A DNA stretch of 62,359 nt from assembly GCA_030618705.1 (NCBI GenBank), contig JAUXCW010000001.1, positions 1 through 62,359 of the forward strand, given 5' to 3'. The DNA comes from Gammaproteobacteria bacterium (GTDB taxonomy: Bacteria; Pseudomonadota; Gammaproteobacteria; Pseudomonadales; JAHEGP01). The notes below the pieces were generated by a model. It saw only the letters and a program-made list of their open reading frames with translations, was not told the DNA's origin and searched no databases. Made by a program: the position numbers and the translations under genes. Shown here piece by piece: positions 4,881-54,753 of the stretch. Position 1 is the stretch's first letter; each line of letters opens with the position of its first letter.

Positions 4881-4888
4881 GCTGTGCC

Positions 4889-5932: not shown

Positions 5933-5964
5933 TCACTATTCCTCTATCATAATCTGCAGATGTA

Positions 5965-8568
5965 TTATGGCAGGATCGACGTTTCGGGCTGCCAACTCGT
6001 ATACCAATCTCCTTCGTTCAGCACCAGGGCCTTTAACTGCCGGGCGCTTTCCTTCCAGCTCAGCCAGTTGATGCCGGCGGAGGAGACCACTTCACCGCTC
6101 TCGTGCAATTCGAGCCAGTGTTGCAGACTCGCGGCGAGATCCTGCGGCGCATCGCCGGAAAAGTACATAGCGTGATCGCCGGCCACTTCCTGGAACACCG
6201 GCAAGTCCCGGGCCAGAATCGGCAGGCCGTGCCGTGCCGCTTCGATCAACGGCAAGCCAAAGCCCTCACCGCTTGACGCGGCCAGCAACACAGAGCTGGC
6301 GTCATAAACCTGCTGCAACATCTCATCACTGATACCCTGCAGCCAAAACAGCTGTTTCTCATTCTGCGGGTGGCTGTTGAGCCGTTTTTCAAATTGCTCC
6401 ATGTGCCAGCCGGATTTACCGACCAGCACCAGGTTCGCCTCAATTCCCTCTTGCCACAACAGCTCCATGGCCCGCAATGCCTGCTGCTGCCCTTTGCGCG
6501 GTTCGATAGTGCCTACCATCAATAAGCTGGGGCGCTCACGCAATTGCCGCAGCAACCGCTCGGCATTATCCGGCAGGCCGGTCGAGGGCAGGCTGGACTC
6601 GATATCGGCGCCCAGGTGGAAATAGCCCAGCTTGAGCACGGATTGCCGCCGCGGCGGGTTGGCCGCCAACCACGCCAGCACCTCGTCCGCCACGGACCTG
6701 GAGATACAGATCAGGCCATCCGACTCACCGGCGGCGTAGCCCAGCCAGAAGGGAAAGCGCTCCCTGAGGCCGATATGAAAGGAGCTTCCCTGCAGGATCG
6801 GCAGCAGATCGTACACGATATAGTAGATTCCGAGGCCACGCTGGCGTTGGTAGCGCAGAAAACTATTGCGCACCTCGTGCACTACCCCTTCGAGATCGAG
6901 ATCCAGCCCCAGGTAGATATCGCCGGCGACGATGTCGATCACTTCGTCACGTTCATCCCGCTGCAGTAAATCGGGCGCCTCGGGGCGATAATCAAGCTCC
7001 CTGAATCCCACTCCCTGTTCGAAGTAAACGGGTCGTACCAGCACACCCTGTATCGGCGTACAACCCAGCTCGTTCAGCAGACTGCGAACCACCCGCTGGA
7101 TGCCGGTTTTGGCATCGATATCAATCAGCACTGAAACATCCAGGTACAGTTTGCGCTGTGCCCGCCAGTGCTGGTTTTCGGCTATAGCCTGGGCACAGTA
7201 GACCAGATCCTGTCGCCCCGGTCGGCCGGCGTCGGCGCCCAGTTGCACCAAGCCGTTCGACAAGCCAGGGGCGAGACTCGCCCTTTGCCCGGCGGGCGGG
7301 CCGGATGAATGACTGCTTTTCGACCGTGATCGCGGACCGGTCTGCGCATACCGCTGTTCAAAGGCGGCAACCGCCATTTCTCCGCTCCGGTCCCAACTAA
7401 AGCGGCTAGACTGCACCACCGATGAATCGAGAATCGCCTGGCGCAATGCCTGGTCAGTTAAAGCACGCTCCATGGTCCGGGCCATATCCTCGCTGTTAGC
7501 GGGGTCGAACAGCGCCGACGGGTTCGCAATGACTTCCGGAATACTACTGCAGTCGGAGCCGATGACCACGGCGCCACAACGCATGGCCTCCAGGGCCGGC
7601 AAGCCAAAACCCTCCTCCAGCGAGGGAAACACGAACAGCTCACAGCCGCTGTACAGCAGCACGAGATCGTCGTCGCTAACGCGATCGGTAAACACCAACT
7701 GCCCGGGATCGATGCCCAGTCGCGCCGACTCCACCTGCATATCGTGCTGGTCATAGGCATTGTAGCGCCCCACCAGCACTAACTGGTATTGCGCCCTGAG
7801 TGCAGGGGATAGAAGCGCATAGGCTTGCAGCAAACCAGCGAAATTCTTACGCGGATCATCCCTGCTTATCACGCCGGTATACATGATAAACGGCCGGCGA
7901 ATGCCGAACTGGCGCAAGCGCTCTGCATGGGTGGGCAGGGAGGCATCCAGCGGCCGAAACAGGGGATCGGCGTCAGCCGATACCGAGGTAATACGATCGT
8001 CGGGCAAGCCCAGCAACTCAATGGCCGCGGCTCGCGTATGATCGGAGTTGGAGAGCAGCAGGCCGCAGCGTTGCAGGGATTGTAACTGCTCCGAATACCA
8101 TGCCTGCTGCTCCGGGGTCGGCAAATAGTGTTCAGGCCTTGCATAGGGAATCAGGTCATGAAGAGTTGCCGAGTATATAAAATCGCACGGCAGGCAGCCG
8201 CAAGAAACGACACTGTCGTCGCCCCAACCCTCAAATATGCTGAAGGTATGCACCAGGTCCGCACCCAGCGAAGCCAGGAAGGACTCGCGAATGAGTTGGC
8301 CGGCGCGATTGCGCCAGCCATTGGCCGGGTCGCGACTCATCGCCCTGGGCAATGTGCGATAAACCCGAATTTTCTCCTCCGCCAGCAATTTGCCGAAGGT
8401 CTCCCTCAGGGGCTCTATGGTATCGGGGAATACATGATTGAGGGTAACAGTGACATCGTGTGACCCGCGATTGCGAATGATCGCCTGCGCCAGGGACAGA
8501 CTATATCGGCCAATCCCTCGGTGCCGGGATTCAGATTGCGCCGCCTGCAAATCCAGTACGATTTTCAT
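5965..8568 (-). CDS. two-domain glycosyltransferase (tandem GT4/GT-B modules), polymerase-like mannosyl/rhamnosyl transferase
   Basis: The E-x7-E type motif occurs twice (EEGFGLPALEAMRCGAVVIGS and GEGFGLPLIEAARHGLPILARD). At 867 aa it resembles WbdA/WbpX-type enzymes. Confidence 0.8.
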   Translation of the reverse strand: MKIVLDLQAAQSESRHRGIGRYSLSLAQAIIRNRGSHDVTVTLNHVFPDTIEPLRETFGKLLAEEKIRVYRTLPRAMSRDPANGWRNRAGQLIRESFLASLGADLVHTFSIFEGWGDDSVVSCGCLPCDFIYSATLHDLIPYARPEHYLPTPEQQAWYSEQLQSLQRCGLLLSNSDHTRAAAIELLGLPDDRITSVSADADPLFRPLDASLPTHAERLRQFGIRRPFIMYTGVISRDDPRKNFAGLLQAYALLSPALRAQYQLVLVGRYNAYDQHDMQVESARLGIDPGQLVFTDRVSDDDLVLLYSGCELFVFPSLEEGFGLPALEAMRCGAVVIGSDCSSIPEVIANPSALFDPANSEDMARTMERALTDQALRQAILDSSVVQSSRFSWDRSGEMAVAAFEQRYAQTGPRSRSKSSHSSGPPAGQRASLAPGLSNGLVQLGADAGRPGRQDLVYCAQAIAENQHWRAQRKLYLDVSVLIDIDAKTGIQRVVRSLLNELGCTPIQGVLVRPVYFEQGVGFRELDYRPEAPDLLQRDERDEVIDIVAGDIYLGLDLDLEGVVHEVRNSFLRYQRQRGLGIYYIVYDLLPILQGSSFHIGLRERFPFWLGYAAGESDGLICISRSVADEVLAWLAANPPRRQSVLKLGYFHLGADIESSLPSTGLPDNAERLLRQLRERPSLLMVGTIEPRKGQQQALRAMELLWQEGIEANLVLVGKSGWHMEQFEKRLNSHPQNEKQLFWLQGISDEMLQQVYDASSVLLAASSGEGFGLPLIEAARHGLPILARDLPVFQEVAGDHAMYFSGDAPQDLAASLQHWLELHESGEVVSSAGINWLSWKESARQLKALVLNEGDWYTSWQPETSILP

Positions 8569-9065
8569 GGCGACGATTTATCCGGGAGTTGGTCGACCAA
8601 CTCGCTATAGATAAAACGAGCGGAGGGTGGCAACTTTTCCAGCGTCATCTGCTCCGCATAGTCGACATCCGGGGCCGACCAGTCCGCGACCAGGGATGGC
8701 ATGACCACACGACGCAAGGCCTCTTTCACCGAGGGAAAACGATCCAGGCCAGCCAGTATAGTGGTGCGAGTACGCGGGTAGCGCGTCGCAACCACGGCCC
8801 CCCGGGAAGCCAGCGCGGCGAGGAGCTTGCGCGGCCGGACCAGGTAGGCGGCGGAGGTGGCGACTGCGCGCAAGGGTGCCGTCAAGCGCCAGGAACTACT
8901 GGCGTAGATGTGTCCGAGCAGGGCCTGTCGTTCGGCAAGTTCCTGTTCCAGCTGTTCGATTTTGCCGAACGCCGTGAATAGCTCCCACTTCAGCTGCTCC
9001 CGCTCGCGCTGCGCGGCTTCCTGTAGGTTCGATTGGTTCCCTGCGGGCACCTGCTCCTGCTTCAT
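8565..9065 (-). CDS. hypothetical coiled-coil protein of the glycan operon
   Basis: N-terminal heptad-rich segment (EREQLKWELFTAFGKIEQLEQELAERQALL) followed by SSSWRLTAPLR. ATGA overlap with the downstream GT. Confidence 0.5.
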   Translation of the reverse strand: MKQEQVPAGNQSNLQEAAQREREQLKWELFTAFGKIEQLEQELAERQALLGHIYASSSWRLTAPLRAVATSAAYLVRPRKLLAALASRGAVVATRYPRTRTTILAGLDRFPSVKEALRRVVMPSLVADWSAPDVDYAEQMTLEKLPPSARFIYSELVDQLPDKSSP

Positions 9066-9078
9066 GGTTTACCGCGGC

Positions 9079-10494
9079 TCAGCTACGGCCGTAGTTGTCC
9101 TCGTAGCGCACGATGTCATCTTCACCCAGGTAACTGCCACTCTGGACCTCTATCAGGTGCAAGGGCATTTTCCCCGGGTTGCGCAGACGATGTTTTTCGC
9201 CGAGGGGGATGTAGATGCTCTCGTTCTCCGCCAACATGTGGCTTTTCTCACCCACCTGGACCTCGGCGGTACCCTGCACCACGACCCAGTGTTCCGCCCG
9301 GTGGTGATGCATCTGCAAGGACAGGGATTGCCCGGGATTAACGGTGATACGCTTGACCTGGTAGCGCTCACCGTGGTCTACGGATTCATAACTGCCCCAG
9401 GGGCGATACACTTCACTGTGCGTCAGGTGTTCTTCCCGCCCCCGCTCATCCAGGCGGCTGACCAGCATTTTGACATCCTGCACCCGGTCGCGGCTGGCGA
9501 TCAACAGCGCATCCGTGGTGTCCACCACCACCAGGTCGCTGACCCCTATGGCGGCGATCAGGTGGTCATTGGCGTGAAACAGGCAACCGCTGCAATCCTC
9601 GGTGATCACATCGCCCCGTCTGGCATTGCCCTGCTCGTCCTTATCCATGACCTCGAGGATGGAGGACCAGCTGCCCAGGTCGCTCCACGAGATATCCAGG
9701 GGCACCATCCACGCATGGTCGGTCCGCTCCAGCACCGCGTAGTCGATGGACTCTGAAGGGCAGGCCTCCATCGCGGCCTGGCCGAGCCGAATAAAGTCCA
9801 GATCAACGGCGGCTTCCTCAAAGGCCTGTCGGCAGTAATCCATCATGGCGGGCTCAAAACGCGTCAACTCCTGTACAAGCGTCGCCGCCTTGAACACGAA
9901 CATACCGCTATTCCAGAAGTATTCGCCGCTGGCGAGATATTTTTCAGCGGTGGCCGCATCCGGTTTTTCGACAAATTCAACCACCGCCGCGCCCGACTCG
10001 GTGTCTCCAGCGGCGCGAATATAGCCATAACCGGTTTCCGGCTTATCCGGGCGCACGCCAAATACCACCAGGTGACCTTCGGCGGCACGCGCTATCGCTC
10101 GATCCAGGGCTTCGCGGAACATGGTCTCTTCCCGGATAAGGTGATCCGCGGGCAACACCACCATAATCGCGTCGTCATCCTGCTGCAGTGCCTTGAGCGC
10201 CGCCACGGCGATAGCCGGGGCGGTATTGCGGGCAATCGGCTCGAGGATAATGGCAGCGGTAGCGCCATCGAGCTCGCCGAGTTGCTCGGCGATCAGGAAG
10301 CGTTGCTCATCATTACAGACCACCGTCGGTGCCCCCAAATGGGCGATACGCATGGCGGTTTCCTGCAACATGGACCAGGGCCCGGTCAATTTCAGCAATT
10401 GCTTTGGGTAGTGTTTACGGGACATCGGCCACAAACGCGTACCACTACCACCGGAAAGAATAACCGGTACCACCGGATTCTTATTGCTTGACAT
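9079..10494 (-). CDS. bifunctional mannose-1-phosphate guanylyltransferase / mannose-6-phosphate isomerase (type II PMI-GMP; AlgA/WbpW/XanB family)
   Basis: VILSGGSGTRLWPMSR nucleotidyl-transferase motif and a C-terminal cupin (RPWGSYESVD...HHHRAEHWVVV). Start trimmed to MSSNKNPVVPVIL at 10494. Confidence 0.9.
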   Translation of the reverse strand: MSSNKNPVVPVILSGGSGTRLWPMSRKHYPKQLLKLTGPWSMLQETAMRIAHLGAPTVVCNDEQRFLIAEQLGELDGATAAIILEPIARNTAPAIAVAALKALQQDDDAIMVVLPADHLIREETMFREALDRAIARAAEGHLVVFGVRPDKPETGYGYIRAAGDTESGAAVVEFVEKPDAATAEKYLASGEYFWNSGMFVFKAATLVQELTRFEPAMMDYCRQAFEEAAVDLDFIRLGQAAMEACPSESIDYAVLERTDHAWMVPLDISWSDLGSWSSILEVMDKDEQGNARRGDVITEDCSGCLFHANDHLIAAIGVSDLVVVDTTDALLIASRDRVQDVKMLVSRLDERGREEHLTHSEVYRPWGSYESVDHGERYQVKRITVNPGQSLSLQMHHHRAEHWVVVQGTAEVQVGEKSHMLAENESIYIPLGEKHRLRNPGKMPLHLIEVQSGSYLGEDDIVRYEDNYGRS

Positions 10495-33285: not shown

Positions 33286-33299
33286 TTGATTTACGTCAA
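33286..33299 (+). promoter_or_regulatory. FNR/Anr box upstream of ccoN
   Basis: TTGAT-TTAC-GTCAA. A GATAAT -10 hexamer at 33322-33327 puts the box centre near -41.5 (class II geometry). Confidence 0.7.
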
Positions 33300-42134: not shown

Positions 42135-42148
42135 TTGATATACGTCAA
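42135..42148 (+). promoter_or_regulatory. FNR/Anr box upstream of hemN
   Basis: TTGAT-ATAC-GTCAA with a perfect TATAAT at 42170-42175 (box centre about -40.5/-41.5). Confidence 0.75.
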
Positions 42149-43804: not shown

Positions 43805-44551
43805 ATGAGTTCAAACATCGCAGAGTCGAAACAGGTGGGTAATTTCTGTACTCACGATTACAGGGTTAATTGCAGCGATTGCCGTTTAAACAGCATTTGC
43901 TTGCCCATTGCACTCGAAGCGCAGGATATTGAACGCCTCGACAAGATCATTCAACGCAGTAAACCACTGCACAAAGGTGAGCACGTTCACCGGGAAAACG
44001 AACCTTTCACCTCTGTCTACGCGGTGCGCTCCGGCTGCCTCAAGGCCTACAAGATTACCGGCGACGGCAAAGAGCAAGTCACCGGTTTCCACTTCCCTGG
44101 TGAGTTGTTCGGGGTCGACGGCATCGCCAAGAACAGCCATATGGTCTCCGCCAAGGCTCTGGAGACCTCGGCCATCTGCGAAATACCCTTCAAGCGACTG
44201 GAGGAGTTGAGCACCAAACTACCTAGTCTGCAGCGGCACTTCTTCCGGCTCATGAGCCAGGAAATTGCCGAGGACCAGCAACTCATCACCTTGCTCAGCA
44301 AGAGTTCAGCCGAGCAGCGCGTCGCCGCATTACTCATCAGTATTTCGAGTCGCAGCGCCAAATTAAAGCTGTCTGCCACGGCCTTTCGCCTGCCCATGTC
44401 TCGCACCGATATAGGCAATTATCTCGGTCTCACGGTCGAAACCGTCAGCCGTATTTTCAGCCGTTTCCAGAAAGCTGAAATGCTGCGCGTGGAGAACAAG
44501 GAAATCTGTATTTTGCAAATAGAAGAAATGCAGCAATTGGCGGGCTTGTAG
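43805..44551 (+). CDS. fnr: FNR/Anr-type CRP-family oxygen-sensing regulator
   Basis: N-terminal Cys cluster (FCTHDYRVNCSDCRLNSIC plus an internal Cys), a cNMP-like domain, and the C-terminal HTH with RTDIGNYLGLTVETVSRIFSRF (E--SR recognition motif). Confidence 0.9.
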   Translation: MSSNIAESKQVGNFCTHDYRVNCSDCRLNSICLPIALEAQDIERLDKIIQRSKPLHKGEHVHRENEPFTSVYAVRSGCLKAYKITGDGKEQVTGFHFPGELFGVDGIAKNSHMVSAKALETSAICEIPFKRLEELSTKLPSLQRHFFRLMSQEIAEDQQLITLLSKSSAEQRVAALLISISSRSAKLKLSATAFRLPMSRTDIGNYLGLTVETVSRIFSRFQKAEMLRVENKEICILQIEEMQQLAGL

Positions 44552-45413: not shown

Positions 45414-45884
45414 ATGGATTCACGCTGTCGCTGTATCGAACATTTAATTTTGCGCCCGACCCTGCGACTGCTCGATGCGGAGTCCGATGCTGCCGTGACC
45501 CTGTTACTGGGCACCGGGCTCGCCGAAACCGGATTCGGCACCCCGCAACCGGGCATGCATGGTTTTTTTGCCATCACAACTGCACAGCACCGCCGCGCCT
45601 GGGATGAATACCTGGCGTTCAGGCCGGAGCGCGCCAGCCTGGTTCGCGGCCTGGCCAGCCCCATCGCATTCCTCCAGGACCCCGATGCCGAGCTGGATCG
45701 AAACCCGGCCTATGCGACAGCTATTGCCTGGATAATCTATGAAGCCGACGGCGTAAACCCGGAACTCGCCGGGACCGGCCAGGCACTGGCCGGAGTCTGG
45801 CGCGAGGTCTACCACCCCGGTGAAGAACCGGATCTCACCATCGCCGGTCGCTATTGGCAGGACATCGACCGCGACGCGGCCTGA
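45414..45884 (+). CDS. hypothetical protein (weak lysozyme/SLT-like motifs)
   Basis: LLLGTGLAETGF...GFFAITTAQH is only loosely reminiscent of transglycosylase ES / GLMQ motifs. Start uncertain. Confidence 0.35.
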   Translation: MDSRCRCIEHLILRPTLRLLDAESDAAVTLLLGTGLAETGFGTPQPGMHGFFAITTAQHRRAWDEYLAFRPERASLVRGLASPIAFLQDPDAELDRNPAYATAIAWIIYEADGVNPELAGTGQALAGVWREVYHPGEEPDLTIAGRYWQDIDRDAA

Positions 45885-45896
45885 TACCACCCGCAC

Positions 45897-46517
45897 TCAG
45901 TAATCCAGTTCAAACCTCTCCAGGTGCACCAGGTCCTCCGGTCGGTCGATATCCGGCAGGGGCTCAAGTGCATGCCAGCTCCACCCCAGGGCAGCGATCC
46001 TGCCGAGGGTGATCTCGCAGACCGTCGCCCCGCCCCATTCCATGTCGGTGAACAGCGAACTGTCATAGCGGCGCAAGCCCAGGGCGACATAGCCACCGTC
46101 AAGGGCAGGAATAAGCACGGCATCATGTTTTTCCAGGCCGGCCAACAGGCGATGGTAGTGCTCCGGACCCAGGCCCGGACAATCACTGCCGCTGATCAAT
46201 ACACGGCCATAGCCCCGGGCAAAATTATCGCGAAAAGCCTGTGCCATTCGCTGCCCAAGATCGCCTTCGCATTGACGATGCTCGGATACACCCGGTGTGG
46301 CGAATGGGCTGGCCGCGGCCGTCTCGCCGTCCAGCCATAGCTGCACGTCACTGGTGGCTGCCAGCACCATCTGTTCGAGGCAATGTCGCGTCATCGCGCT
46401 GTGAAGACGGCACGCCCGCTCTGCGCCCAGCGCCGGAATCAAGCGGGTTTTGACCCTGCCCGCCAGGGGAATACGGCTAAACAGCATAGCGACCGAATAC
46501 AGGGGCGCCGGAGTCAA
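45897..46517 (-). CDS. DUF2064 / TIGR04282-like transferase ('transferase 1, rSAM/selenodomain-associated'; now named arsenosugar-biosynthesis glycosyltransferase)
   Basis: VAMLFSRIPLAGRVKTRLIPALGAERACRLHSAM is the family's N-terminal nucleotide-transferase-like motif. Proposed TTG start at 46517 overlaps the upstream stop (TTGA). The ORF-track start at 46580 is the alternative. Confidence 0.6.
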   Translation of the reverse strand: MTPAPLYSVAMLFSRIPLAGRVKTRLIPALGAERACRLHSAMTRHCLEQMVLAATSDVQLWLDGETAAASPFATPGVSEHRQCEGDLGQRMAQAFRDNFARGYGRVLISGSDCPGLGPEHYHRLLAGLEKHDAVLIPALDGGYVALGLRRYDSSLFTDMEWGGATVCEITLGRIAALGWSWHALEPLPDIDRPEDLVHLERFELDY

Positions 46518-47179
46518 CGGTATTGCCGTGCCAGCCAACGCGGGCTGGCACCCAAAAAATACAACAAACGCAACCGCCACATCAGCAATACGGTGCGCAA
46601 CACACCGCCGCTCTCCCAGCGCCGGCTCGAGGTTTGCAGCGGCAAGGCGACAAACCCTGGCGGTGCGACAGCACGCAATCGTTTGGACAACTCGACATCC
46701 TCCATCAAGGGCTGGTCGACAAATCCGCCCAGAGCCTGGAACAAGCCACGCCGGACAAATATTCCCTGGTCACCGGTAGCCACCGCCGTGATACGGCTGC
46801 GGCAGACGATCAGGCGCTCGATAAGGCGAAACACCCGCCGCTCACCACTGAGCACAAGGCCAAAAAATCCCCAATCTTCAGCCGCGGTTATCGCCTCGAG
46901 ATAGGCGCCGCCGGGAGCCAGCAGGACACTGTCCGCATGCAGGAACCAGAGCCATTCGCCCCGCGCAACGGCGGCGCCCGCATTCATCTGGATGGCGCGA
47001 CCGGCGGAATGCCGGAGGACTTGATCAGCCAGGGGCAGCGCCCTCTCCCCGGTGCCGTCGCAACTACCGCCATCCACCACGATCAGCTCGACTTCGTCGT
47101 GGCCCAGCCTTCCCAGCAGAGACTCGACCACCGCCGCTTCGTTCAGGGTGGGTATGATAATACTGACTCTGGGACACAC
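46514..47179 (-). CDS. GT2-fold transferase, TIGR04283-like ('transferase 2, rSAM/selenodomain-associated')
   Basis: VSIIIPTLNEAAVVESLL GT-A motif, VVDGGSCDGT, LHADSVL. Starts 3 nt after the rSAM gene's stop. Confidence 0.65.
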   Translation of the reverse strand: MCPRVSIIIPTLNEAAVVESLLGRLGHDEVELIVVDGGSCDGTGERALPLADQVLRHSAGRAIQMNAGAAVARGEWLWFLHADSVLLAPGGAYLEAITAAEDWGFFGLVLSGERRVFRLIERLIVCRSRITAVATGDQGIFVRRGLFQALGGFVDQPLMEDVELSKRLRAVAPPGFVALPLQTSSRRWESGGVLRTVLLMWRLRLLYFLGASPRWLARQYR

Positions 47180-47182
47180 TAC

Positions 47183-48163
47183 TCAGCCAGCCCCGAGCGC
47201 ACCACCGCAACTGCTGCCCTGGCCGGCCGTACAAGCATAGCAATGCTCGCCGACCCGGATTGGGGCTCCCACTGCCGGGGTATGCAGCAGGCTCGAAATG
47301 TGCACGCGCCGGGCATCGCTGGCCAGCAGGCCGGAGGGTGCCATCGGCAGGTCTATCATCTGGTTGAAGTCACAGTCGTAGAGGTAACCCTGCCAGTCAA
47401 CACTGAGCTGGGAGCGGCACATGACGCCAGTGAGGTTTTCCTCACTGTAACTGTCCTTGAGAAGCTGCATATAGCCAGCGTATTGCCCCTGCGAGAGCAA
47501 CACGGCACCGAAGCGATTGATCGGCATATTGGCGAGCGTGAACAAACTGTCAAACACGATGCCGTGTCGTTGCTGTAACTCCCGCTTGTAGTCCCCCTCT
47601 AACTGCACCTGTTCAGGCGGCAAATACGGCCCCGCCGGGTTATATACAAGACTCAGCTCGAGCCCTCGCCCCTGGCCGTAACCCAATGCGTTCAATTCGC
47701 GCAGGGCGGAGATACTCTCTTCATAGACCCCCTTGCCCCGTTGTTTGCTGACGTTTTCCTCCTGGTAGCAGGGTAGCGAAGCGACGATGCTCACCCCCTG
47801 CCCGGCGAGAAAACCGGCCATATGCCGATAGCCTGGCTGGCGCAGTATGGTGAGGTTACAGCGGTCTATAACGCTCACGCCCAGGGCCCGCGCCTTACGC
47901 ACCAGGTACTCGAAATGAGGATTCATCTCCGGTGCGCCACCGGTGAGGTCCAGTTGTTTTACCGAGTGTGTAGCCATATACGCCAGCAGGATTTCTATCA
48001 CCTCCAGCGACATCGATTCCGTGCGCTGGGGGCCGGCGTTGACATGGCAATGGGTACAGCTGAGGTTACAGCGATAGCCCAGATTGACCTGGAGGGTTTC
48101 CAATGCGCCCCGCTCAAGTGACGGAAAGTCCGTTTCAAGCAATAGCGCCCGGGTATCTTGCAT
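47183..48163 (-). CDS. arsS: radical SAM / Cys-rich-domain protein of the ArsS family (TIGR04167-like), Cys form
   Basis: LGYRCNLSCTHCHV (CxxxCxxC) and the family-typical C-terminal CYACTAGQGSSCGGAL motif. The symbol reflects family membership only; the substrate here is questioned in the findings. Confidence 0.75.
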   Translation of the reverse strand: MQDTRALLLETDFPSLERGALETLQVNLGYRCNLSCTHCHVNAGPQRTESMSLEVIEILLAYMATHSVKQLDLTGGAPEMNPHFEYLVRKARALGVSVIDRCNLTILRQPGYRHMAGFLAGQGVSIVASLPCYQEENVSKQRGKGVYEESISALRELNALGYGQGRGLELSLVYNPAGPYLPPEQVQLEGDYKRELQQRHGIVFDSLFTLANMPINRFGAVLLSQGQYAGYMQLLKDSYSEENLTGVMCRSQLSVDWQGYLYDCDFNQMIDLPMAPSGLLASDARRVHISSLLHTPAVGAPIRVGEHCYACTAGQGSSCGGALGAG

Positions 48164-48258
48164 AATGACTGCTCTTTCTCTGTTAACAGTTCAAACTACA
48201 ATGTTTTGACCACGCCACACGGCATGGTTCCCTCGAATATTCATCTCCCGACAGGCTT

Positions 48259-49062
48259 TCATCCGCCTTGCTTACTGGCGATGCGAGGCAGGAGGCGGTG
48301 AAATGTATTGGGAGCCATTCGCCGAAGCGCGTAGGCCAGCCTCAGCTTACCCCCCGCGATCACGATTTCGGCCTCGTCTTTAGCCAGGGCTCTCAGCAAC
48401 TGTACGACGAAATCCTCTACCGGCATCCCTGTGGCGATATCCGCATCCACTTCATCAAAGGCCTCCCCACCGCTGGTCAACGCATTGTGTGCCACATCGG
48501 TCTGAACATAACCCGGACAGACCACGTGTACTTGAACACCGGTGTCGGCGATCTCGGCGCGCAGGCAGTCCATAAAGCCGATGATTGCATGTTTGGCAGC
48601 GCAATAGGCGCTGCGCAGCGGGGAACCCAGCTTGCCCGCGATACTGGAGATGGTCACCACATGCCCCTCTCCCCGGTCGATCATCAGCGGCACAAGCCCC
48701 TTGGTCAGCGCCACAGTACCAAAATAATCCACCTCCATGATCTGCCTGTCCACCACCAGGGATGTCTCCAGGGCCAGGCTGCGCTGGCTGATACCGCCGT
48801 TGTTGAACAGGATATCGATACCACCGCTGTTATCCCATGCCTGCAGTGCACAAGCGGCAAGACCGTCGCTATCCGCCAGGTCGAGGACGAGGCATTTGTG
48901 TCGCTCGGGATGTACGCAGGCCTGGCGCACGCTTTCCAGCGCCTCCATTCGCCGCGAGGATAAAACCAGTTTTGCACCCATCGCGGACAGCTGCAGCGCA
49001 AGCTCGCGACCGATACCCGAGGATGCCCCGGTTATCCATACGGTTTTATCCTGGAATTGCAT
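48259..49062 (-). CDS. short-chain dehydrogenase/reductase (classical SDR)
   Basis: TGASSGIGRELA, NNGG, S...YCAAK catalytic motif. First gene of the minus-strand operon. Confidence 0.85.
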   Translation of the reverse strand: MQFQDKTVWITGASSGIGRELALQLSAMGAKLVLSSRRMEALESVRQACVHPERHKCLVLDLADSDGLAACALQAWDNSGGIDILFNNGGISQRSLALETSLVVDRQIMEVDYFGTVALTKGLVPLMIDRGEGHVVTISSIAGKLGSPLRSAYCAAKHAIIGFMDCLRAEIADTGVQVHVVCPGYVQTDVAHNALTSGGEAFDEVDADIATGMPVEDFVVQLLRALAKDEAEIVIAGGKLRLAYALRRMAPNTFHRLLPRIASKQGG

Positions 49063-49121
49063 GATCCTGCTCCCCTCCGACGGTGGCGTTATCCTGTATT
49101 ATCCGTTTGCTTCGTGCAACA

Positions 49122-49161
49122 GCCAATTTGACCCACCCCGTTCAAATACAGTCAAATTGGC
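49122..49161. promoter_or_regulatory. perfect 11-bp inverted repeat (candidate operator) in the SDR/arsS - selD divergent spacer
   Basis: GCCAATTTGAC (49122-49132), 18 nt, GTCAAATTGGC (49151-49161). Roughly central in the 151-nt spacer 49063-49213. Confidence 0.4.
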
Positions 49162-49213
49162 ACCGCTGGACTCTCCAGTGGACCATTCACCATGACAAGT
49201 CGGGATTTCGACC

Positions 49214-51403
49214 ATGCAAGCAGCCAGCGAACACGACCGCGACCTGGTACTGGTAGGCGGCGGCCATAGCCACCTGTCGGTGATCAGGCAACTGGCGATG
49301 GTGCCGATTGCGGGTTTGCGCGTCACCGTGGTGAGCAAGGACATCCACACCCCGTACTCCGGTATGCTACCCGGGCTCATCGCCGGCCATTACAGCGAGG
49401 ACCAGTGTCATATCGACCTGCGTCGCCTGTGCCAGTGGGCCGGGTTCCGCCTGTACCATTCGAGCGCGGTTCGCATAGACAGCCGACAACAAACCGTCCA
49501 TTGCGACAATCGCCCGCCCCTGCGTTACGACTGGCTGTCCATCAATACCGGCTCTACACCCGACCTGTCACGCATCGCCGGCGCCAGGGAGTACGGAGCC
49601 CCGGTCAAGCCCATCGCCGCATTCCTGGCCGCGCTGGAACACTGGCAGGCAAGCTTGCCATCGCGACCGACTCCTGCCTGGCTTACCGTTGTCGGAGGCG
49701 GTGCCGCCGGGGTGGAGCTGGCACTGGCAATCCAATATCGAATGCACAGGCAGGGACCACCAGGCAAGGTGCGCTATCGCCTGGTAAGCGCAGATAAGCG
49801 CTTGCTGCCTAGCCACAACCACCGCGTCGCGGGCTATTTCACCCATCTGCTAGAGGAGCGAGGCATCGAGCTGAACCTCGAACAGCGGGTGGACAAACTC
49901 GATGAGCACACGCTGTACAGCACCACAGGAGCAGAGCTGAAAAGTGATTTCACCGTGCTGGCGACCCATGCCGCGGCCCCGGCATGGCTGCGCGACAGCG
50001 ATATCGCTGTCGATCAGCGGGGTTTTATCCGGGTCAGCGACGAGATGCGCAGCACCTCCCACGACAATATTTTTGCCGGCGGAGACTGCGCCAGTATAGA
50101 GGGCGAAAACATACCCAGGAGCGGGGTCTATGCGGTGCGCCAGGGCCCGGTAATGGCCGAAAATATCAGGCGCCTGATCGAGGGACGCGGCCTGCGCCGC
50201 TACCGCCCGCAACACCGGTTTCTCTCATTGATGGCCACGGGGGAGCGACGGGCAGTTGCCTCACGGGGTCCTCTGTTTGCCGCGGGGGCCTGGGTCTGGC
50301 GCTGGAAGTCCCATATCGACCGGCGTTTTATGGCGAAGTTCAGCGAGTTGCCAGCAATGGCTGACAAGCCTGTCCAGCCAGCCGACGAGGAAATGCGCTG
50401 TGGTGGCTGCGGCGCCAAAGTTGGTAGCCAGGCCTTGCAGCGGGCATTGCAAAAACTGGGTGAGGATACCGGCAGCGGCGCGGCCCTCGCCATCGAGGAT
50501 GCCGTGGTGTTCACCCCTCCCGCCGACCGGCAGATGGTGCAGACCATGGACCACTTCCGGGCCTTTATCGACGACCCCTATCTGGTCGGCCGGATCGGCG
50601 CCAACCACTGCCTGGGGGATATCTATGCCATGGGCGCCACCCCGGATTCCGCACTGGCGCTGGCAAATATACCCTATGGTCACCCACGCATCATGGAGGA
50701 CACCCTGTACCAGCTTATGCGGGGGGCAGTGAGCACCCTGCAAGAGGCCGACGCGCGTTTACTTGGCGGTCACTCCGGCGAGGCCATGGAACTGGCCTTC
50801 GGCATGACAGTTAACGGCCACGTCGCCCCGGGGCAGGCGCTACTAAAAAGCGGCCTGGTGGCCGGACAGGCACTGGTGTTGAGCAAACCCCTGGGCACCG
50901 GCACCCTACTGGCTGCCAATATGCGCCACGCCGCTCGTGGGCGATGGATAGACGGCGCGCTGGAGAACATGCAGCAAAGCAATGCCACAGCTGCAACAAT
51001 AATACGCCAGTTCGGGGCCGGCGCTTGCACCGATGTCACCGGTTTCGGCCTGCTCGGCCACCTGCTGGAAATGCTTCACGCTTCGGGCACCGGCGCCGGG
51101 TTATTCCTGGATGCCATACCGTTATTGCCCGGTGCGGAGCAGTGTCTGCAAAAGCAACTCTTCAGTACGCTGCATCCTGACAACGCGAGCGTGCGCTCAT
51201 ATATTTCTAACGATGTTGCTCAGACGCATACCGCTCGCGTGGATATTCTCTTCGACCCGCAAACCGCCGGCGGCCTGCTCTGCGGTATCGCCGACGAGCG
51301 GGCGAAAGATTGCGTTGCTGCACTAAAGTTGGCAGGCTACCAGGCCGCGGTGGTGGGCCGGGTACTGGATACTGACGGCGAGGTTCGGGTGGAACTGGTT
51401 TAA
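49214..51403 (+). CDS. selD: fusion protein: FAD-dependent pyridine-nucleotide-disulfide oxidoreductase (TIGR03169-like) N-terminal half plus selenide, water dikinase (SelD) C-terminal half
   Basis: N-terminus LVLVGGGHSHLSV, VVGGGAAGVELA and FAGGDCAS (two Rossmann motifs). C-terminus MRCGGCGAKVG (Cys/Lys active-site loop), DDPYLVGRIGANHCLGDIYAMGA, TDVTGFGLLGHL (PurM-like). Confidence 0.85.
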   Translation: MQAASEHDRDLVLVGGGHSHLSVIRQLAMVPIAGLRVTVVSKDIHTPYSGMLPGLIAGHYSEDQCHIDLRRLCQWAGFRLYHSSAVRIDSRQQTVHCDNRPPLRYDWLSINTGSTPDLSRIAGAREYGAPVKPIAAFLAALEHWQASLPSRPTPAWLTVVGGGAAGVELALAIQYRMHRQGPPGKVRYRLVSADKRLLPSHNHRVAGYFTHLLEERGIELNLEQRVDKLDEHTLYSTTGAELKSDFTVLATHAAAPAWLRDSDIAVDQRGFIRVSDEMRSTSHDNIFAGGDCASIEGENIPRSGVYAVRQGPVMAENIRRLIEGRGLRRYRPQHRFLSLMATGERRAVASRGPLFAAGAWVWRWKSHIDRRFMAKFSELPAMADKPVQPADEEMRCGGCGAKVGSQALQRALQKLGEDTGSGAALAIEDAVVFTPPADRQMVQTMDHFRAFIDDPYLVGRIGANHCLGDIYAMGATPDSALALANIPYGHPRIMEDTLYQLMRGAVSTLQEADARLLGGHSGEAMELAFGMTVNGHVAPGQALLKSGLVAGQALVLSKPLGTGTLLAANMRHAARGRWIDGALENMQQSNATAATIIRQFGAGACTDVTGFGLLGHLLEMLHASGTGAGLFLDAIPLLPGAEQCLQKQLFSTLHPDNASVRSYISNDVAQTHTARVDILFDPQTAGGLLCGIADERAKDCVAALKLAGYQAAVVGRVLDTDGEVRVELV

Positions 51404-51612
51404 CCCAAATGCCGCTTACTTATGCCATATTGACGGAGGGGCCGGGGCTTCCAGAGCAGGACCGTGCGCCGGTTGGACCCGGCGCCCGAGCCTACATGGA
51501 TGTATTATCGGGGGGGCGCCTAGCTCGAGTCCTGGGCTGGGAGCCCCGGTCCCTTGCCCAACTACATTGTAAACGCCTTGGCTTATCGGTGCTTCGCTAA
51601 AGTAAGTGCCAA
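51404..51612. repeat. copy B of the structured intergenic repeat (see 29371..29622)
   Basis: Begins right after the selD stop and fills most of the gap to the convergent selU stop. Has a 17-bp closing stem (GGGGCCGGGGCTTCCAG / CTGGGAGCCCCGGTCCC) and internal hairpins (GCGCCGG-TTGGAC-CCGGCGC; TACAT-GG-ATGTA). Confidence 0.85.
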
Positions 51613-51617
51613 CAGGT

Positions 51618-52718
51618 TTAACCCGAAAACAGGCTGGCGCGATCCCGGCACCAGCCGAGTACCGCGGTGTAATCGCCACGATACACCACCCTTGATTCCG
51701 ACCGGGACAACTGATACTCGTACATGGGGTCGTAATAATCGCACAACAAATGGTTAATCCAGGCCTCGTGGGCTGACTGCTCGCCGCTACGCAATGCCAG
51801 CCTCATCAGCTTGTCCAGTTCGGCGTAGTGCTGCAGCCCCAGGCGTTTTTTAATCCTCCCCAGGCTGTCGAGCAGGTGCTGCTGAAGCATCCGCTCGCTG
51901 TTTTGTGGGTCTAGTGCCTGGTATTCGCGGCCCAACTCCAACACATACTCCTGGTAAATACGCTCGATCCGAAAGGCCAGCGGCATTTCCACGATGACCA
52001 GCGGCGCCTTGCGCATACTGCGAAACAACTCCGCGGGCAGGGAGACAGCTCCGATGCTGTGACTCTCATCTTCAAAAAACAAGTCGACCCCGGGCTGGTG
52101 TTCGGTGACAGTCAACAGATCGATGGCCAGGCGGTGTTCAAAATCGACCTGGGAGGGGGGCTCGGTGGCATGGCGGCCAAAGCTCGAGCCCCGGTGGTGG
52201 GCGTGGTGTTCCAGGTCGATGCCGGTGGCCAGCTCTTGCACCAACGGGGTTTTCGCCGCGCCGGTCTGGCCGCCGATCACCACCATGCCCCGACTGCCAG
52301 CGACGTTTTCGGTCACCGACATCAGGTAGCCACGCAGGGCCTTGTATCCGCCCTCGATCACCGGCACTTCACAACCGGCCTCGGCCATCCACTCGGCAGC
52401 CAGGTTGGAGCGCATGCCGCCACGCCAACAGTACAGATGGGTACTGCGCTGCGCCCGGGCAAACTCGCACCATGCCGCCACCCGCGCCGCCTTTACATCG
52501 CCACCGACCAGTTTATGCCCCAGGTCGACAGCCGCATCCCGCCCTTCCTGCTTATAGACCGTGCCGACCCTGGCCCGCTCCCCTGTGGTCAGTATCGGTA
52601 GATTGCGGGCGCCGGGAAATGCACCTTTGATGAATTCGACATCGGCGCGCACATCGATAAACGACGTCCCGTCGAGAAACAGGCGCTTGAATTGGTCGGC
52701 TCGTATCAGCTGTGTCAT
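51618..52718 (-). CDS. selU: tRNA 2-selenouridine(34) synthase
   Basis: Rhodanese active site YCWRGGMRS, N-terminus FIDVRADVEFIKGAFPGARNLP...GTVYKQEG, P-loop GGQTGAAKT. Close resemblance to E. coli YbbB/MnmH. Confidence 0.85.
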   Translation of the reverse strand: MTQLIRADQFKRLFLDGTSFIDVRADVEFIKGAFPGARNLPILTTGERARVGTVYKQEGRDAAVDLGHKLVGGDVKAARVAAWCEFARAQRSTHLYCWRGGMRSNLAAEWMAEAGCEVPVIEGGYKALRGYLMSVTENVAGSRGMVVIGGQTGAAKTPLVQELATGIDLEHHAHHRGSSFGRHATEPPSQVDFEHRLAIDLLTVTEHQPGVDLFFEDESHSIGAVSLPAELFRSMRKAPLVIVEMPLAFRIERIYQEYVLELGREYQALDPQNSERMLQQHLLDSLGRIKKRLGLQHYAELDKLMRLALRSGEQSAHEAWINHLLCDYYDPMYEYQLSRSESRVVYRGDYTAVLGWCRDRASLFSG

Positions 52719-52830: not shown

Positions 52831-54753
52831 ATGACAGAGGAATTCGGCAGCCCCATGACCCCACAAAGACCCGTCTGGCTTTTCAGCATGGATTCCGACC
52901 ATTTCCATGCGGTGCCCACCACCACCGGCGCACTCATGGCCTACTACCGGCATTACGGCAGCCAGGTGGATGCCACTGACATACGCTTGCTGCACTTCCG
53001 GGACGAAACGGACATTCACGAATGGGTTGAAAACGGCCTGTACGCGATGATTGAACAGTGTCGAGCATCTCTTGCGCGAGGCCTCACGCCGGTCGCCGGT
53101 TTCAGTTTCTACACCTGGAACGCCGCGGAATTCCTCGACCTGATCCACACCCTCAAGACCCTGTGCCCCGGCATTCTGGTCATCGCCGGCGGCCCCCACG
53201 TACAACAGGCCGAGGACTACCTGCACCAGGACCACATCGACCTGGTGATCCTGGGTGAAGGCGAGGCCACGCTCCAACAACTACTGGACGACCCCCACGT
53301 CGACAACTGGGGCAATATCAACGGCCTGGCCTTTCTTGACGAAAACGGTCACGTCTGTAAAACCCCCGAGCGCAAGCGCGAGACCGAGCTCGATAAGCTG
53401 CCATCCGCACTGGATGTCATCCCCCTGACCGACGGGGACGGCAAGCCCCTGTACGACTCGATCTCCTACGAAACCAGCCGCGGCTGTCCCTTCAAGTGCG
53501 CGTTTTGCGAGTGGGGCACCGGCGCCATCGGCACCAAAATGGTCCAGCATTCCATGGCGCGAATTAGCCGGGACTGGCACAGGGTAATCGATGCGGGCAT
53601 CCAGAATATCTGGCTGGCAGACTCAAATTTTGGCGCCCTCAAGGAGGATATCGACAAGACGCGGTTGATCTGTGAATTCAAGGAGCGCACCGGGCTGCCC
53701 AGGACATTCGCCACCTCCTGGTCGAAGAAGCACAGCAGCAAGGTCCAGCAGATCGTACTCATGCTTCACGACCACGGCCTGCTGCCCCACTACCAACTGG
53801 CACTGCAAACCCTCACGCCGCTGGCACTGGAGTTATCTAACCGCAGCAATATGGACGCCAATAAATACCAGCCCATCGCCCGGCAGATGGCCGCTGCAGG
53901 TGTTCCCATCGCGGCGGAACTGATCTGGGGCCTGCCCGGCGACAACCTGGCGGAATTCGAGAGCAACCTCGACACCCTGCTGGCCACCTTCCCCAACATC
54001 AACATCTTTGGCTATACCCTGCTACCGGGAACCGAGTTCTATGAAAAGCGCGAGCACTACCGGATCAAGGTCATTCCCGTCGCCGGTTACGGCAAGGCCA
54101 AGGGAGAATATGTCGTCGGTTGCCACACTTTCAGCACCGATGAGGGCAAAGAGGGCTACTTTCTGATCACTGCCCATATGATCCTGATCCACGGCTATAT
54201 CATGCCCCTCACCACACGGTTTCTCGCCATGCAGGACGACATTCCTGCGACGCCGCTGTTGCGCGCCACCCTGCGAGCCCTGCTCGAGGAATACCGCGGT
54301 GAGTTTCAAAAGCTCGACCTCGATGATCGAATGGCCATCTACGAGGACCGCGCCCAGCTCTATCTTCACTTTATGCACGACCTGGACCGCAGTTTTCGAT
54401 GTATTGAACGATCATTACGTGAGTGGCTCGAGCAACATCATGCGGGCAAAGCGGTATTCGCACAGGCGATAAATATATTGCACCTGGACCGGGCCTGTTG
54501 CCCCCGCCGGGGCGAGGGCCATGTGCTAACCGAGGAATTCAGTTTCAATGCCGACAGTGCTGCCCGCAAGCTGCTGTCAATGGAACTGCCCACCACTGAC
54601 GATTTCATGGCCCGAAAGCAAGTTCTGCACATCGAACAACCCGGTGGTGTCGGCGAGGTACTGAAAGACCCCGATGGCGGCAGCTGGATCAAGGGCAATA
54701 TTCTCAAGCCGGTCAAGGCCGACGCCATCGCCAGCACGCTTCTCAACCAGTGA
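52831..54753 (+). CDS. B12-binding-domain radical SAM protein with a long C-terminal extension
   Basis: ILVIAGGPHV...DLVILGEGE (B12-binding-like), YETSRGCPFKCAFCEWG (CxxxCxxC). 640 aa. Start uncertain (52831 or 52855). Confidence 0.7.
   Translation: MTEEFGSPMTPQRPVWLFSMDSDHFHAVPTTTGALMAYYRHYGSQVDATDIRLLHFRDETDIHEWVENGLYAMIEQCRASLARGLTPVAGFSFYTWNAAEFLDLIHTLKTLCPGILVIAGGPHVQQAEDYLHQDHIDLVILGEGEATLQQLLDDPHVDNWGNINGLAFLDENGHVCKTPERKRETELDKLPSALDVIPLTDGDGKPLYDSISYETSRGCPFKCAFCEWGTGAIGTKMVQHSMARISRDWHRVIDAGIQNIWLADSNFGALKEDIDKTRLICEFKERTGLPRTFATSWSKKHSSKVQQIVLMLHDHGLLPHYQLALQTLTPLALELSNRSNMDANKYQPIARQMAAAGVPIAAELIWGLPGDNLAEFESNLDTLLATFPNINIFGYTLLPGTEFYEKREHYRIKVIPVAGYGKAKGEYVVGCHTFSTDEGKEGYFLITAHMILIHGYIMPLTTRFLAMQDDIPATPLLRATLRALLEEYRGEFQKLDLDDRMAIYEDRAQLYLHFMHDLDRSFRCIERSLREWLEQHHAGKAVFAQAINILHLDRACCPRRGEGHVLTEEFSFNADSAARKLLSMELPTTDDFMARKQVLHIEQPGGVGEVLKDPDGGSWIKGNILKPVKADAIASTLLNQ

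Follow-up and report, generated by a model that had tools for sequence, protein, structure and literature searches.

We propose that the 62,359-nucleotide (62-kb) stretch of gammaproteobacterial DNA analysed here, hereafter the window, carries two known modules, an arsenosugar-type operon and a tRNA-selenation gene pair, which adjoin one another in one clade and are probably linked via the flavoprotein half of a fusion with the selenophosphate synthetase SelD. We give this reading about an even chance of being correct. Two observations frame it: the adjacency of ArsS and SelD is confined to a narrow gammaproteobacterial clade of marine bacteria, and the partner that recurs with ArsS clusters is not SelD but the TIGR03169 flavoprotein that makes up the N-terminal half of the fusion. 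The features concerned are as follows.

45897-46517, minus strand: TIGR04282/DUF2064 protein with a CofC-like nucleotidyltransferase fold (NCBIfam TIGR04282, Pfam DUF2064)
46514-47179, minus strand: TIGR04283 GT2-fold glycosyltransferase, MftF-like (NCBIfam TIGR04283, Pfam Glycos_transf_2)
47183-48163, minus strand: ArsS-family radical SAM enzyme, Cys form (TIGR04167, Pfam Radical_SAM and DUF3641)
48259-49062, minus strand: classical SDR oxidoreductase (NF004825, 217 bits, cut-off 215)
49063-49213, no strand: divergent spacer of 151 nt between the SDR and SelD fusion genes
49214-51403, plus strand: TIGR03169 FAD/NAD(P) oxidoreductase::SelD fusion, 729 aa (TIGR03169 and TIGR00476)
51618-52718, minus strand: SelU/MnmH tRNA 2-selenouridine synthase (NF008751, TIGR03167 and a Rhodanese domain)

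These genes were compared with 160 loci altogether (L numbers below), comprising a forward census of 80 species-representative ArsS loci and a reverse census of 80 loci with a fused TIGR03169::SelD, with neighbours recorded within 10 kb in both cases. The window ArsS matches the NCBIfam model TIGR04167 with 447.6 bits (cut-off 300), over positions 2-303 of 303. Its translation carries the radical SAM motif CNLSCTHC (CX3CX2C at C32/C36/C39), its C-terminal domain is DUF3641 (Pfam, 182.6 bits), and its C-terminal motif CYACTAGQGSSCGG has Cys319 at the place where the selenoprotein members have selenocysteine; C32, C36, C39, C308, C311 and C319 are invariant in the 19 homologues compared. The family does include selenoproteins, as the first-pass annotation of this DNA had stated, and their GxxU Sec motif has been tabulated (PMC13188914). 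Both transferases also score above their NCBIfam cut-offs (233 bits versus 182 for the GT2 protein on TIGR04283; 195 bits versus 134 for the DUF2064 protein on TIGR04282, with a weak CofC match). They are collinear with ArsS at 55-56 and 51-52 of the 80 loci, respectively, and the order ArsS-GT2-DUF2064 is kept in more than 50. Three nucleotides (GTA) separate the TGA stop of ArsS from the GTG at which the GT2 gene begins; the GT2 gene in turn ends in a TGA that forms, with the TTG start codon of the DUF2064 gene, the 4-nt overlap TTGA. The DUF2064 gene is the final gene of the operon.

Turning to the fusion, its residues ~10-376 form a pyridine nucleotide-disulfide oxidoreductase spanning positions 1-365 of the 365-position TIGR03169 model (463.7 bits, cut-off 310), and its residues ~394-729 form a SelD (TIGR00476, 265.6 bits, cut-off 125). 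The C-terminal half is filed as a true SelD because the protein stays below the cut-off of the TIGR04369 'fusion_not_SelD' model (496 bits versus 700). Cys399 and Lys402 lie in a glycine-rich loop, where MRCGGCGAK aligns with VRSSGCAAK of the Aquifex SelD (2yye/2zod). R395, C396, G397, G398 and K402 are invariant among the 24 fusions compared. In the 2yye loop, we take the cysteine to replace the native Sec13 and the lysine to be Lys16. Judged from its sequence, the SelD half is intact, with its catalytic cysteine and lysine present and SelU adjoining. SelU itself (434 bits on NF008751, cut-off 361; 322 bits on TIGR03167; Pfam Rhodanese found) is encoded convergently with the fusion, adjoins it in all close relatives examined, and is the expected consumer of the selenophosphate made by the fused SelD. 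The structural claims of the first-pass annotation thus hold throughout: its open reading frames and junctions (the 3-nt gap, the TTGA overlap and the 151-nt spacer) are all present in the sequence, its family names (TIGR04282, TIGR04283, ArsS, SDR, TIGR03169::SelD and SelU) are borne out by scores above the NCBIfam cut-offs, and the divergent fusion and convergent selU agree with both scores and coordinates.

The annotation had also described a four-gene operon headed by the SDR gene, which stands only in part. The SDR gene is present on the same strand, 95 nt upstream of ArsS, and no terminator-like site was found in the gap between them. It is nevertheless a window-specific addition and no conserved operon member, being missing between ArsS and the SelD fusion in every close relative examined (L081, L083, L084 and L166) and absent at 79/80 other ArsS loci. 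On a Hymenobacter plasmid, the gene directly upstream of arsS encodes an SDR (NF004825, 220 bits; 38% identity to the window SDR). The divergent spacer holds a perfect 11-bp inverted repeat, GCCAATTTGAC-N18-GTCAAATTGGC, at 49122-49161; a related ATTTGAC...GGTCAATTG element occurs in the L081 and L083 spacers and is absent from that of L084. A promoter-like site predicted on the minus strand (49126-49098) faces the SDR gene, and no FNR box was found in the 151 nt.

That no ars gene is visible in the window, as first noted, was upheld by Pfam and NCBIfam scans of ~40 of its open reading frames, which revealed neither arsM nor any other ars gene, and by tblastn with three ArsM seeds, which gave no ArsM-like match. 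The Pfam scans of the window reading frames likewise returned no methyltransferase. Within 10 kb of the nearest marine gammaproteobacterial loci, no ars gene was found except at L029. As for selenium, neither tRNA-Sec nor selA/selB was found in the 62 kb, the GT2 protein gives no match to the SenB model TIGR04348 at E <= 1e-5, and no EgtB/SenA-like family occurs among the scanned reading frames.

The first-pass annotation had inferred that the operon may build a selenium-containing sugar or small molecule, and had named sporadic selD linkage as evidence against this. Sporadic linkage is what the censuses revealed, and by that test the inference is not supported: 2/80 ArsS loci have SelD within 10 kb and 0/80 fused TIGR03169::SelD loci have ArsS within that distance, as against 8-10/80 ArsS loci with a linked ArsM-like methyltransferase. 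SelU is near ArsS at none of the 80 forward loci. Two unrelated betaproteobacterial ArsS clusters contain SelD, namely L041 and L043, the latter with SelD in line with DUF3047, TIGR03169 and a TVP38::MerA-like gene; the fusion itself stands beside an ArsS operon only in the window clade and in L041. Elsewhere the usual neighbour of the fusion is an ABC transporter, the ATPase of which is near fused SelD at 21/80 loci, followed by selU at 4/80; a similar ATPase adjoins, in L168, a TIGR04553 protein that is a putative selenate-binding protein. The window fusion, found instead beside an ArsS operon, otherwise resembles its hundreds of homologues (43-68% identity) in its two-domain architecture and intact SelD catalytic loop.

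What recurs with ArsS is the flavoprotein. Standalone TIGR03169 proteins occur within 10 kb of ArsS at 11/80 loci (six of them above cut-off), against ~0.3-0.4 expected by chance, i.e. a Poisson P of ~1e-12 that overstates the independence of these phylogenetically related loci. Other recurrent genes encode a TVP38::MerA-like reductase (~30/80) and an MTA phosphorylase (6/80). Two of the ArsM-like proteins were aligned, and both keep the CC, YGCG, NC and EC cysteines of the cyanobacterial NF038099 ArsM. Two plasmids illustrate the extended clusters, which have the ArsS, TIGR04283 and TIGR04282 core in common with the window and, like it, a TIGR03169 flavoprotein in the neighbourhood. Burkholderia glumae bglu_2p carries an MTA phosphorylase and a TIGR03169 protein (347 bits, cut-off 310) located directly after TIGR04282, whereas the window has this protein as part of a divergently transcribed SelD fusion; Acinetobacter portensis pJNE5-X3 carries an MTA phosphorylase, an ArsM-like methyltransferase and a PiT transporter. 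Unlike the extended proteobacterial clusters, the window has no TVP38::MerA-like reductase, DUF547, DUF3047, MTA phosphorylase or ArsM-like methyltransferase, nor the transporters found there.

Among the closest known systems is the arsM-arsS arsenosugar pathway of Synechocystis sp. PCC 6803 (Xue et al. 2019; Cheng et al. 2021), in which arsS is co-transcribed with arsM (bioRxiv 2022.09.23.509062). It shares with the window the radical SAM family at the level of the equivalog model, the same cysteine motifs and probably the same chemistry, the adenosylation of a trivalent metalloid. It differs in that arsM is linked there but does not adjoin the window ArsS, and in that the window adds two transferase genes and an SDR gene. 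On one cyanobacterial plasmid the order is TVP38 - mercuric reductase - arsM - TVP38 - arsS, so that TVP38, MerA and ArsM stand there where the window has a divergent SelD fusion; the cyanobacterial MerA and TVP38 are 41% and 37% identical to the proteobacterial TVP38::MerA-like fusion. The sen pathway to selenoneine (SelD-like SenC; SenB, a TIGR04348 selenosugar synthase; EgtB-like SenA), with more than 800 reported cassettes (Kayrouz et al. 2022), similarly places a SelD-type gene beside a glycosyltransferase-containing operon, and this was the logic of the earlier selenium proposal. However, its glycosyltransferase is TIGR04348 and not TIGR04283, it has an EgtB-like SenA where the window has no EgtB/SenA homologue but a radical SAM enzyme, and its selD linkage is conserved across genomes, whereas that of the window operon is not.

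From these comparisons, we propose that module 1, SDR-ArsS-TIGR04283-TIGR04282, would operate as an organo-arsenical riboside (arsenosugar-type) pathway. ArsS would cleave SAM reductively, and the 5'-deoxyadenosyl radical would add to a trivalent methylated metalloid. The characterised ArsS turns dimethylarsenite into 5'-deoxy-5'-dimethylarsinoyl-adenosine (DDMAA; PMC13598754), and we attribute such chemistry to the window enzyme because of its equivalog-level HMM score. An MTA-phosphorylase-type enzyme, cluster-encoded in some genomes and here presumably a housekeeping one, would free adenine to yield a 5-substituted ribose-1-phosphate, from which the CofC-like TIGR04282 protein may then build a nucleotide-sugar; the TIGR04283 GT2 protein would move the sugar onto an acceptor, and the SDR may be an optional tailoring enzyme. 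Module 2, the FAD::SelD fusion with SelU, would provide selenophosphate for 2-selenouridine in tRNA. In this clade, the fusion with SelD would take the place that TIGR03169 has in ArsS clusters. Its flavoprotein domain is probably a reductase that uses NAD(P)H to provide reduced metalloid, namely selenide for SelD and, more speculatively, trivalent arsenicals for ArsS. The roles suggested for TIGR04282, TIGR04283, the MTA phosphorylase and TIGR03169 are drawn from gene context and fold families; the literature searched yielded no experimental work on these roles. The assignment to arsenic is by homology, since no ars gene was found in the 62 kb or, L029 apart, within 10 kb of the closest marine gammaproteobacterial loci.

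It is possible, though rather doubtful, that the adjacency is inherited gene order devoid of functional coupling, the ArsS triad and selD-selU having been joined once in the ancestor of the clade. The absence of ArsS near fused SelD (0/80) and the rarity of SelD near ArsS (2/80) are in line with it. A tree of the TIGR03169 domain groups the window with L081-L085 and L166 in one subclade, which fits a single origin of the adjacency, and synteny with the window extends over a long range in L081 and L083 (ExbD, TraB, UPF0014 and B12-rSAM on one side; Yip1, FNR and HemN on the other). The neighbouring B12-rSAM gene, the Zhongshania and Litorivivens orthologues of which lie in an unrelated context, shows how misleading local synteny can be, and the SDR gene that has been inserted in the window, separating the two units, suggests that the shared promoter region is under no strict constraint. 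Against inheritance alone, TIGR03169 occurs in ArsS clusters far above chance, in several gene orders and lineages, and together with SelD in the two independent betaproteobacterial clusters. Furthermore, the divergent ArsS/FAD::SelD arrangement is kept among close relatives whose ArsS is at least 67% identical, despite altered flanks, as in L084, the flanking genes of which are unlike those of the window. Such persistence is what selection to keep the units linked could produce, and it leaves room for a closer connection to selenium than we favour.

That connection would be tightest if the triad acted on selenium itself, the 5'-deoxyadenosyl radical capturing selenide or selenophosphate from FAD::SelD, or methylated selenium, on the way to a seleno-riboside or other small selenometabolite, which we consider very unlikely. 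Carbon radicals readily attack selenium centres, the divergent FAD::SelD arrangement is conserved across the clade, SelD sits inside the L041 and L043 clusters, and the triad has no linked arsM in the window's subgroup. But selD and ArsS are linked sporadically, whichever of the two the census starts from, SelD already has a neighbouring standard client in SelU, SenA- and SenB-like genes are absent from the window, and the window ArsS reaches 447 bits on the equivalog model that NCBI uses for cyanobacterial ArsS, with invariant cysteine motifs. The SelD-linked L043 has as its nearest ArsS relatives L065 and L044, where ArsM-like genes are linked, and L062, where a standalone TIGR03169 is, indicating that there is no separate 'selenium-type' ArsS lineage. 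We found no paper assigning or excluding a selenium role for the triad in the literature searched. It is equally improbable that the minimal proteobacterial ArsS-GT2-DUF2064 triad acts on a substrate other than arsenic and selenium, the name 'arsenosugar' being over-extended from the cyanobacterial enzyme: most marine gammaproteobacterial loci (L001-L025) have the triad only, with no linked metalloid gene, and the glycosyltransferase names come from curated association, with no experiment found in the searched literature, but ArsS scores at the equivalog level and the triad recurs across phyla with ArsM-like, MerA-like, TVP38, PiT and thioredoxin genes, which fits metalloid handling.

Together, the comparison loci point to a shared flavoprotein partner and to local gene order, and not to a new selenium pathway.

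The block at 45897-52718 comprises a cluster of known type and an unusual neighbour. Each of its genes scored above the curated cut-off of the NCBIfam family named by the first-pass annotation, with a concordant Pfam assignment, and ORFs with the junction sequences described there were found at the following positions.

45897-46517, minus strand: TIGR04282 protein (Pfam DUF2064; NCBIfam 195 bits, cut-off 134)
46514-47179, minus strand: TIGR04283 protein (Pfam GT2; NCBIfam 233 bits, cut-off 182)
47183-48163, minus strand: ArsS, TIGR04167 (Pfam Radical_SAM and DUF3641; NCBIfam 447.6 bits, cut-off 300)
48259-49062, minus strand: SDR, NF004825 (Pfam adh_short; NCBIfam 217 bits, cut-off 215)
49214-51403, plus strand: FAD::SelD fusion, with an N-terminal part TIGR03169 (Pfam Pyr_redox_2; 464 bits, cut-off 310) and a SelD part TIGR00476 (Pfam AIRS and AIRS_C; 266 bits, cut-off 125)
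51618-52718, minus strand: SelU/MnmH (Pfam Rhodanese; NCBIfam 434 bits, cut-off 361)

In the sequence, GTA separates the TGA stop codon of ArsS from the GTG with which the GT2 gene starts; the TGA of the GT2 gene overlaps, within TTGA, the TTG start codon of the DUF2064 gene. The Cys319 residue of ArsS occupies the site of the GxxU selenocysteine motif of the family, for which no solved structure of a homologue was found. The fusion scored 496 bits against TIGR04369, the model for a fusion that is not SelD, i.e. under the cut-off of 700. In an alignment, its MRCGGCGAK loop matches the equivalent loop of the Aquifex SelD at the catalytic cysteine and lysine, and on both grounds the fusion is treated here as a true selenophosphate synthetase.

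The window is the entire contig. Scans of some 30 additional ORFs against Pfam identified polysaccharide and LPS genes, FadBA, two-component systems, LptFG, PepA, ValS, a cbb3 oxidase and its assembly genes, HemN, an FNR-type regulator and a TonB-dependent receptor, and no ars, arsM, selA or selB gene. Together with a tblastn search of the window with three ArsM seed proteins, which gave no match, these scans agree with the earlier remark that no ars gene is visible in the window. The sole tRNA of the window is a tRNA-Arg. This tRNA-Arg(TCG), at 2513-2590 on the plus strand, is overrun by a 390-aa ORF on the minus strand (1740-2912; Glyphos_transf match at residues 163-305), the real start of which probably lies downstream of the tRNA. 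Convergent with the DUF2064 gene, a 156-aa ORF (45414-45884, plus strand) matched neither Pfam nor NCBIfam; this arrangement recurs in eight Halieaceae-type ArsS loci, with 43-48% identity.

The relatives of the ArsS protein of the window occur in marine gammaproteobacteria (Halieaceae, Porticoccaceae, Cellvibrionaceae and Pseudomonadales MAGs). In the close clade (loci L081, L083, L084, L085 and L166), selU and then FAD::SelD stand divergent from ArsS-GT2-DUF2064 wherever the contig extends far enough, the ArsS identity to the window being 73-74% in L081 and L083 and 67% in L084 and L085, and the fusion of L166 being 58% identical. Judging from contigs of equal length in two homologue lists, at least eight contigs appear to encode both ArsS and the fusion. 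The SDR was missing from every close-clade locus examined, and it is therefore a window-specific addition; the flanks of the block are unlike between the window type and L084. In L167 and L168, the fusions of which are 51-52% identical to that of the window, ArsS is already absent.

Both of our censuses rest on tblastn with seed proteins, because ORF calling was poor on high-GC loci. The forward census covered 80 species-representative proteobacterial ArsS loci (57-66% identity, with flanks of up to 10 kb on either side), where we found TIGR04283 (55-56 loci), TIGR04282 (51-52), a TVP38(VTT)::MerA-like flavoprotein disulfide reductase (about 30), DUF3047 (15), an uncharacterised 342-aa protein (15), TIGR03169 (11), an ArsM-like methyltransferase (8-10), an SSF-like transporter (9), DUF547 (7), an MTA phosphorylase (6), SelD (2, the betaproteobacterial loci L041 and L043) and SelU (0). 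The reverse census covered 80 metagenomic loci that encode a fused TIGR03169::SelD (43-50% identity): ArsS, TIGR04283 and TIGR04282 were each absent from all 80, and selU was present in four. Hence, the ArsS-SelD linkage that had been noticed stands as a local adjacency kept within the clade, and is sporadic beyond it. The first-pass annotation had itself taken sporadic selD linkage as counting against its idea that the operon is a selenium pathway; such linkage is what both censuses returned, and that idea is therefore left unsupported. An ABC transporter is typically encoded downstream of the fused TIGR03169::SelD (12232-15277 in L168; 12219-15257 in L167; and, with a phnC-like ABC ATPase, 21/80 of the reverse-census loci L086-L165). 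The binding protein of the L168 transporter belongs to TIGR04553, 'putative selenate ABC transporter' (397 bits, cut-off 250), and this association suggests a unit for selenium uptake, reduction and activation.

Regarding the company that ArsS keeps elsewhere, PMC13598754 and bioRxiv 2022.09.23.509062 report an experimentally demonstrated arsenosugar function for the Synechocystis arsM-arsS genes. A plasmid of the cyanobacterium Pseudanabaena galeata carries the order TVP38 - mercuric reductase - arsM - TVP38 - arsS, the arsM product scoring 570 bits on NF038099. A plasmid of Acinetobacter portensis carries arsS - TVP38::FAD oxidoreductase - DUF547 - TIGR04283 - TIGR04282 - methyltransferase - phosphate transporter - mtnP. 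On Burkholderia glumae bglu_2p, arsS has TIGR03169 (347 bits against 310) - TIGR04282 - TIGR04283 - MTA phosphorylase on one side, and a homologue of the 342-aa protein on the other. As judged by sequence comparison, the proteobacterial cluster is tied to the cyanobacterial arsM-arsS cluster, as follows. First, identity is 41% between the proteobacterial reductase and the cyanobacterial MerA-like protein, and 37% between the VTT domain of that reductase and the cyanobacterial TVP38. Second, two aligned proteobacterial ArsM-like proteins have conserved cysteines in common with the cyanobacterial ArsM, in CC, YGCG, NC and EC contexts, which we take to be the four canonical ArsM cysteines. Third, in a neighbour-joining tree of ArsS (no support values), the SelD-, ArsM- and TIGR03169-linked loci are interleaved, L043 being sister to L062 and L065, so that there is no separate 'selenium-type' ArsS lineage.

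Extended ArsS clusters occur in beta- and gammaproteobacteria (L020, L032, L056, L058, L066, L069, L071, L073 and others, as well as the B. glumae and A. portensis plasmids L170 and L175). Their recurring gene pool comprises the TVP38::MerA-like reductase, DUF547, DUF3047, the SSF-like transporter, MTA phosphorylase, the ArsM-like methyltransferase, PiT, thioredoxin/CcdA and the 342-aa protein, which has no Pfam or NCBIfam match. The PF03773 permease and ArsR-family regulator next to the block in L084 were rejected as arsenic evidence for being non-specific, the former having weak SaoE and Cu/Zn-efflux matches only and the latter being a generic ArsR/SmtB metalloregulator.

What joins the operon to its neighbour is probably the TIGR03169 flavoprotein, owing to which the ArsS/fusion neighbourhood would be non-accidental. 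In the forward census, TIGR03169 is standalone and above the cut-off in L021, L033, L035, L036 and L062; standalone and slightly below it in L073 (scanned), L069 (placed by its 87% identity to L073) and L074; cut by the contig end in L007; fused to SelD in L041; and frameshifted, with a canonical SelD next to it, in L043. Assuming one copy per genome, about 0.3-0.4 occurrences near ArsS would be expected in the 1.28 Mb sampled (Poisson P ~1e-12, a value overstated since the loci are related). The gene orders of TIGR03169 and ArsS vary among lineages. In a tree of the TIGR03169 domain (midpoint root, biased sampling), the SelD-fused forms make a single clade, with the standalone forms of ArsS clusters outside; the window, L081-L085 and L166 make up one subclade, L041 falls elsewhere, with L033 as the sister branch of the fused clade. 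The tree hints that the SelD fusion goes back to an ArsS-cluster-associated flavoprotein. Given the recurrence with ArsS in varied orders and the domain tree, the simplest account of the window is that ArsS clusters are where the flavoprotein half belongs, and that in this clade it arrived already SelD-fused. In L043 (a Candidatus Skiveiella danica MAG, about 4000-10000), the frameshifted TIGR03169 and then SelD (NF002098, 542 bits) are in line with DUF3047 and the TVP38::MerA-like gene, with ArsS-GT2-DUF2064 running divergently from them; an assembly error may explain the frameshift.

The 151-nt spacer between the SDR and fusion genes harbours a promoter-like site pointing toward the SDR gene, and a perfect 11-bp inverted repeat, GCCAATTTGAC-N18-GTCAAATTGGC, at window positions 49122-49161, which may serve as an operator or represent two overlapping divergent -35 boxes. 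L081 and L083, where the repeat is partly conserved, have a kindred ATTTGAC...GGTCAATTG element 5' of the fusion gene; L084 lacks it. Co-regulation of the divergent genes by FNR was rejected, as the spacer has no FNR box; such boxes (TTGAT-N4-GTCAA, one mismatch each) occur 5' of ccoN (33286-33299) and hemN (42135-42148). An FNR/Crp-family regulator gene lies at 43805-44551.

The next gene (52831-54753, plus strand) encodes a 640-aa B12-binding radical SAM protein whose family numbers several hundred members and whose top match is KedN5-like (286 bits, cut-off 700). Its membership of the unit, for instance as a metalloid methylase, was rejected: it adjoins selU in the close clade only, is missing from all 160 census loci, and its orthologues of about 60% identity in Zhongshania and Litorivivens stand beside CinA, HIT and TmcA, without selenium or arsenic genes. 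Its position next to selU is local synteny only. In L166 it is replaced by a 706-aa molybdopterin oxidoreductase (4439-6559, minus strand; weakly FdhA-/PhsA-like), which overlaps the selU stop.

The first-pass annotation thus holds for the families and the local adjacency, the latter being kept within the clade, and its inference of a selenium-containing sugar is unsupported and, in our view, improbable. We found no paper that connects operons of the ArsS type with either selD or selenium small molecules; Kayrouz et al. 2022, who mined selD-overlapping genes, list selA, selU, yedF, duf3343 and TIGR04348 among the commonest and mention no radical SAM enzyme. It is likewise quite unlikely that, in this clade and perhaps in betaproteobacteria of the L041/L043 type, ArsS-GT2-DUF2064 takes a selenium species from TIGR03169::SelD to make a seleno-adenosine- or seleno-riboside-type metabolite, the TIGR03169 flavoproteins being metalloid reductases that couple the arsenic and selenium organo-metalloid pathways. 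If true, this reading would add a route to selenium small molecules apart from the selenocysteine, 2-selenouridine, molybdenum-hydroxylase cofactor and sen/ovoselenol pathways.

We rather propose that ArsS, as demonstrated elsewhere, would adenosylate a trivalent methylated arsenical. Judging from gene context and fold, an MTA-phosphorylase-type cleavage would then yield a 5-substituted ribose-1-phosphate, the CofC-like TIGR04282 protein would operate in nucleotide activation, the GT2 protein TIGR04283 would catalyse the transfer step, and the SDR could provide optional tailoring. An SDR matching NF004825 also occurs immediately 5' of arsS on a Hymenobacter plasmid. As a separate module, FAD::SelD and SelU would produce 2-selenouridine in tRNA, and, speculatively, the TIGR03169 domain might reduce metalloid species for both modules. 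No description of the steps beyond DDMAA, the product of characterised ArsS with dimethylarsenite, was found in the literature, and the order MTA-phosphorylase-type cleavage, TIGR04282 nucleotidyltransferase and TIGR04283 glycosyltransferase offers a testable scheme for late arsenosugar synthesis. As for TIGR03169, so far named 'N-terminal to SelD', it gains a first functional context as a recurrent partner of both ArsS clusters and SelD, a double partnership that suggests a general metalloid-reductase role for this flavoprotein family.
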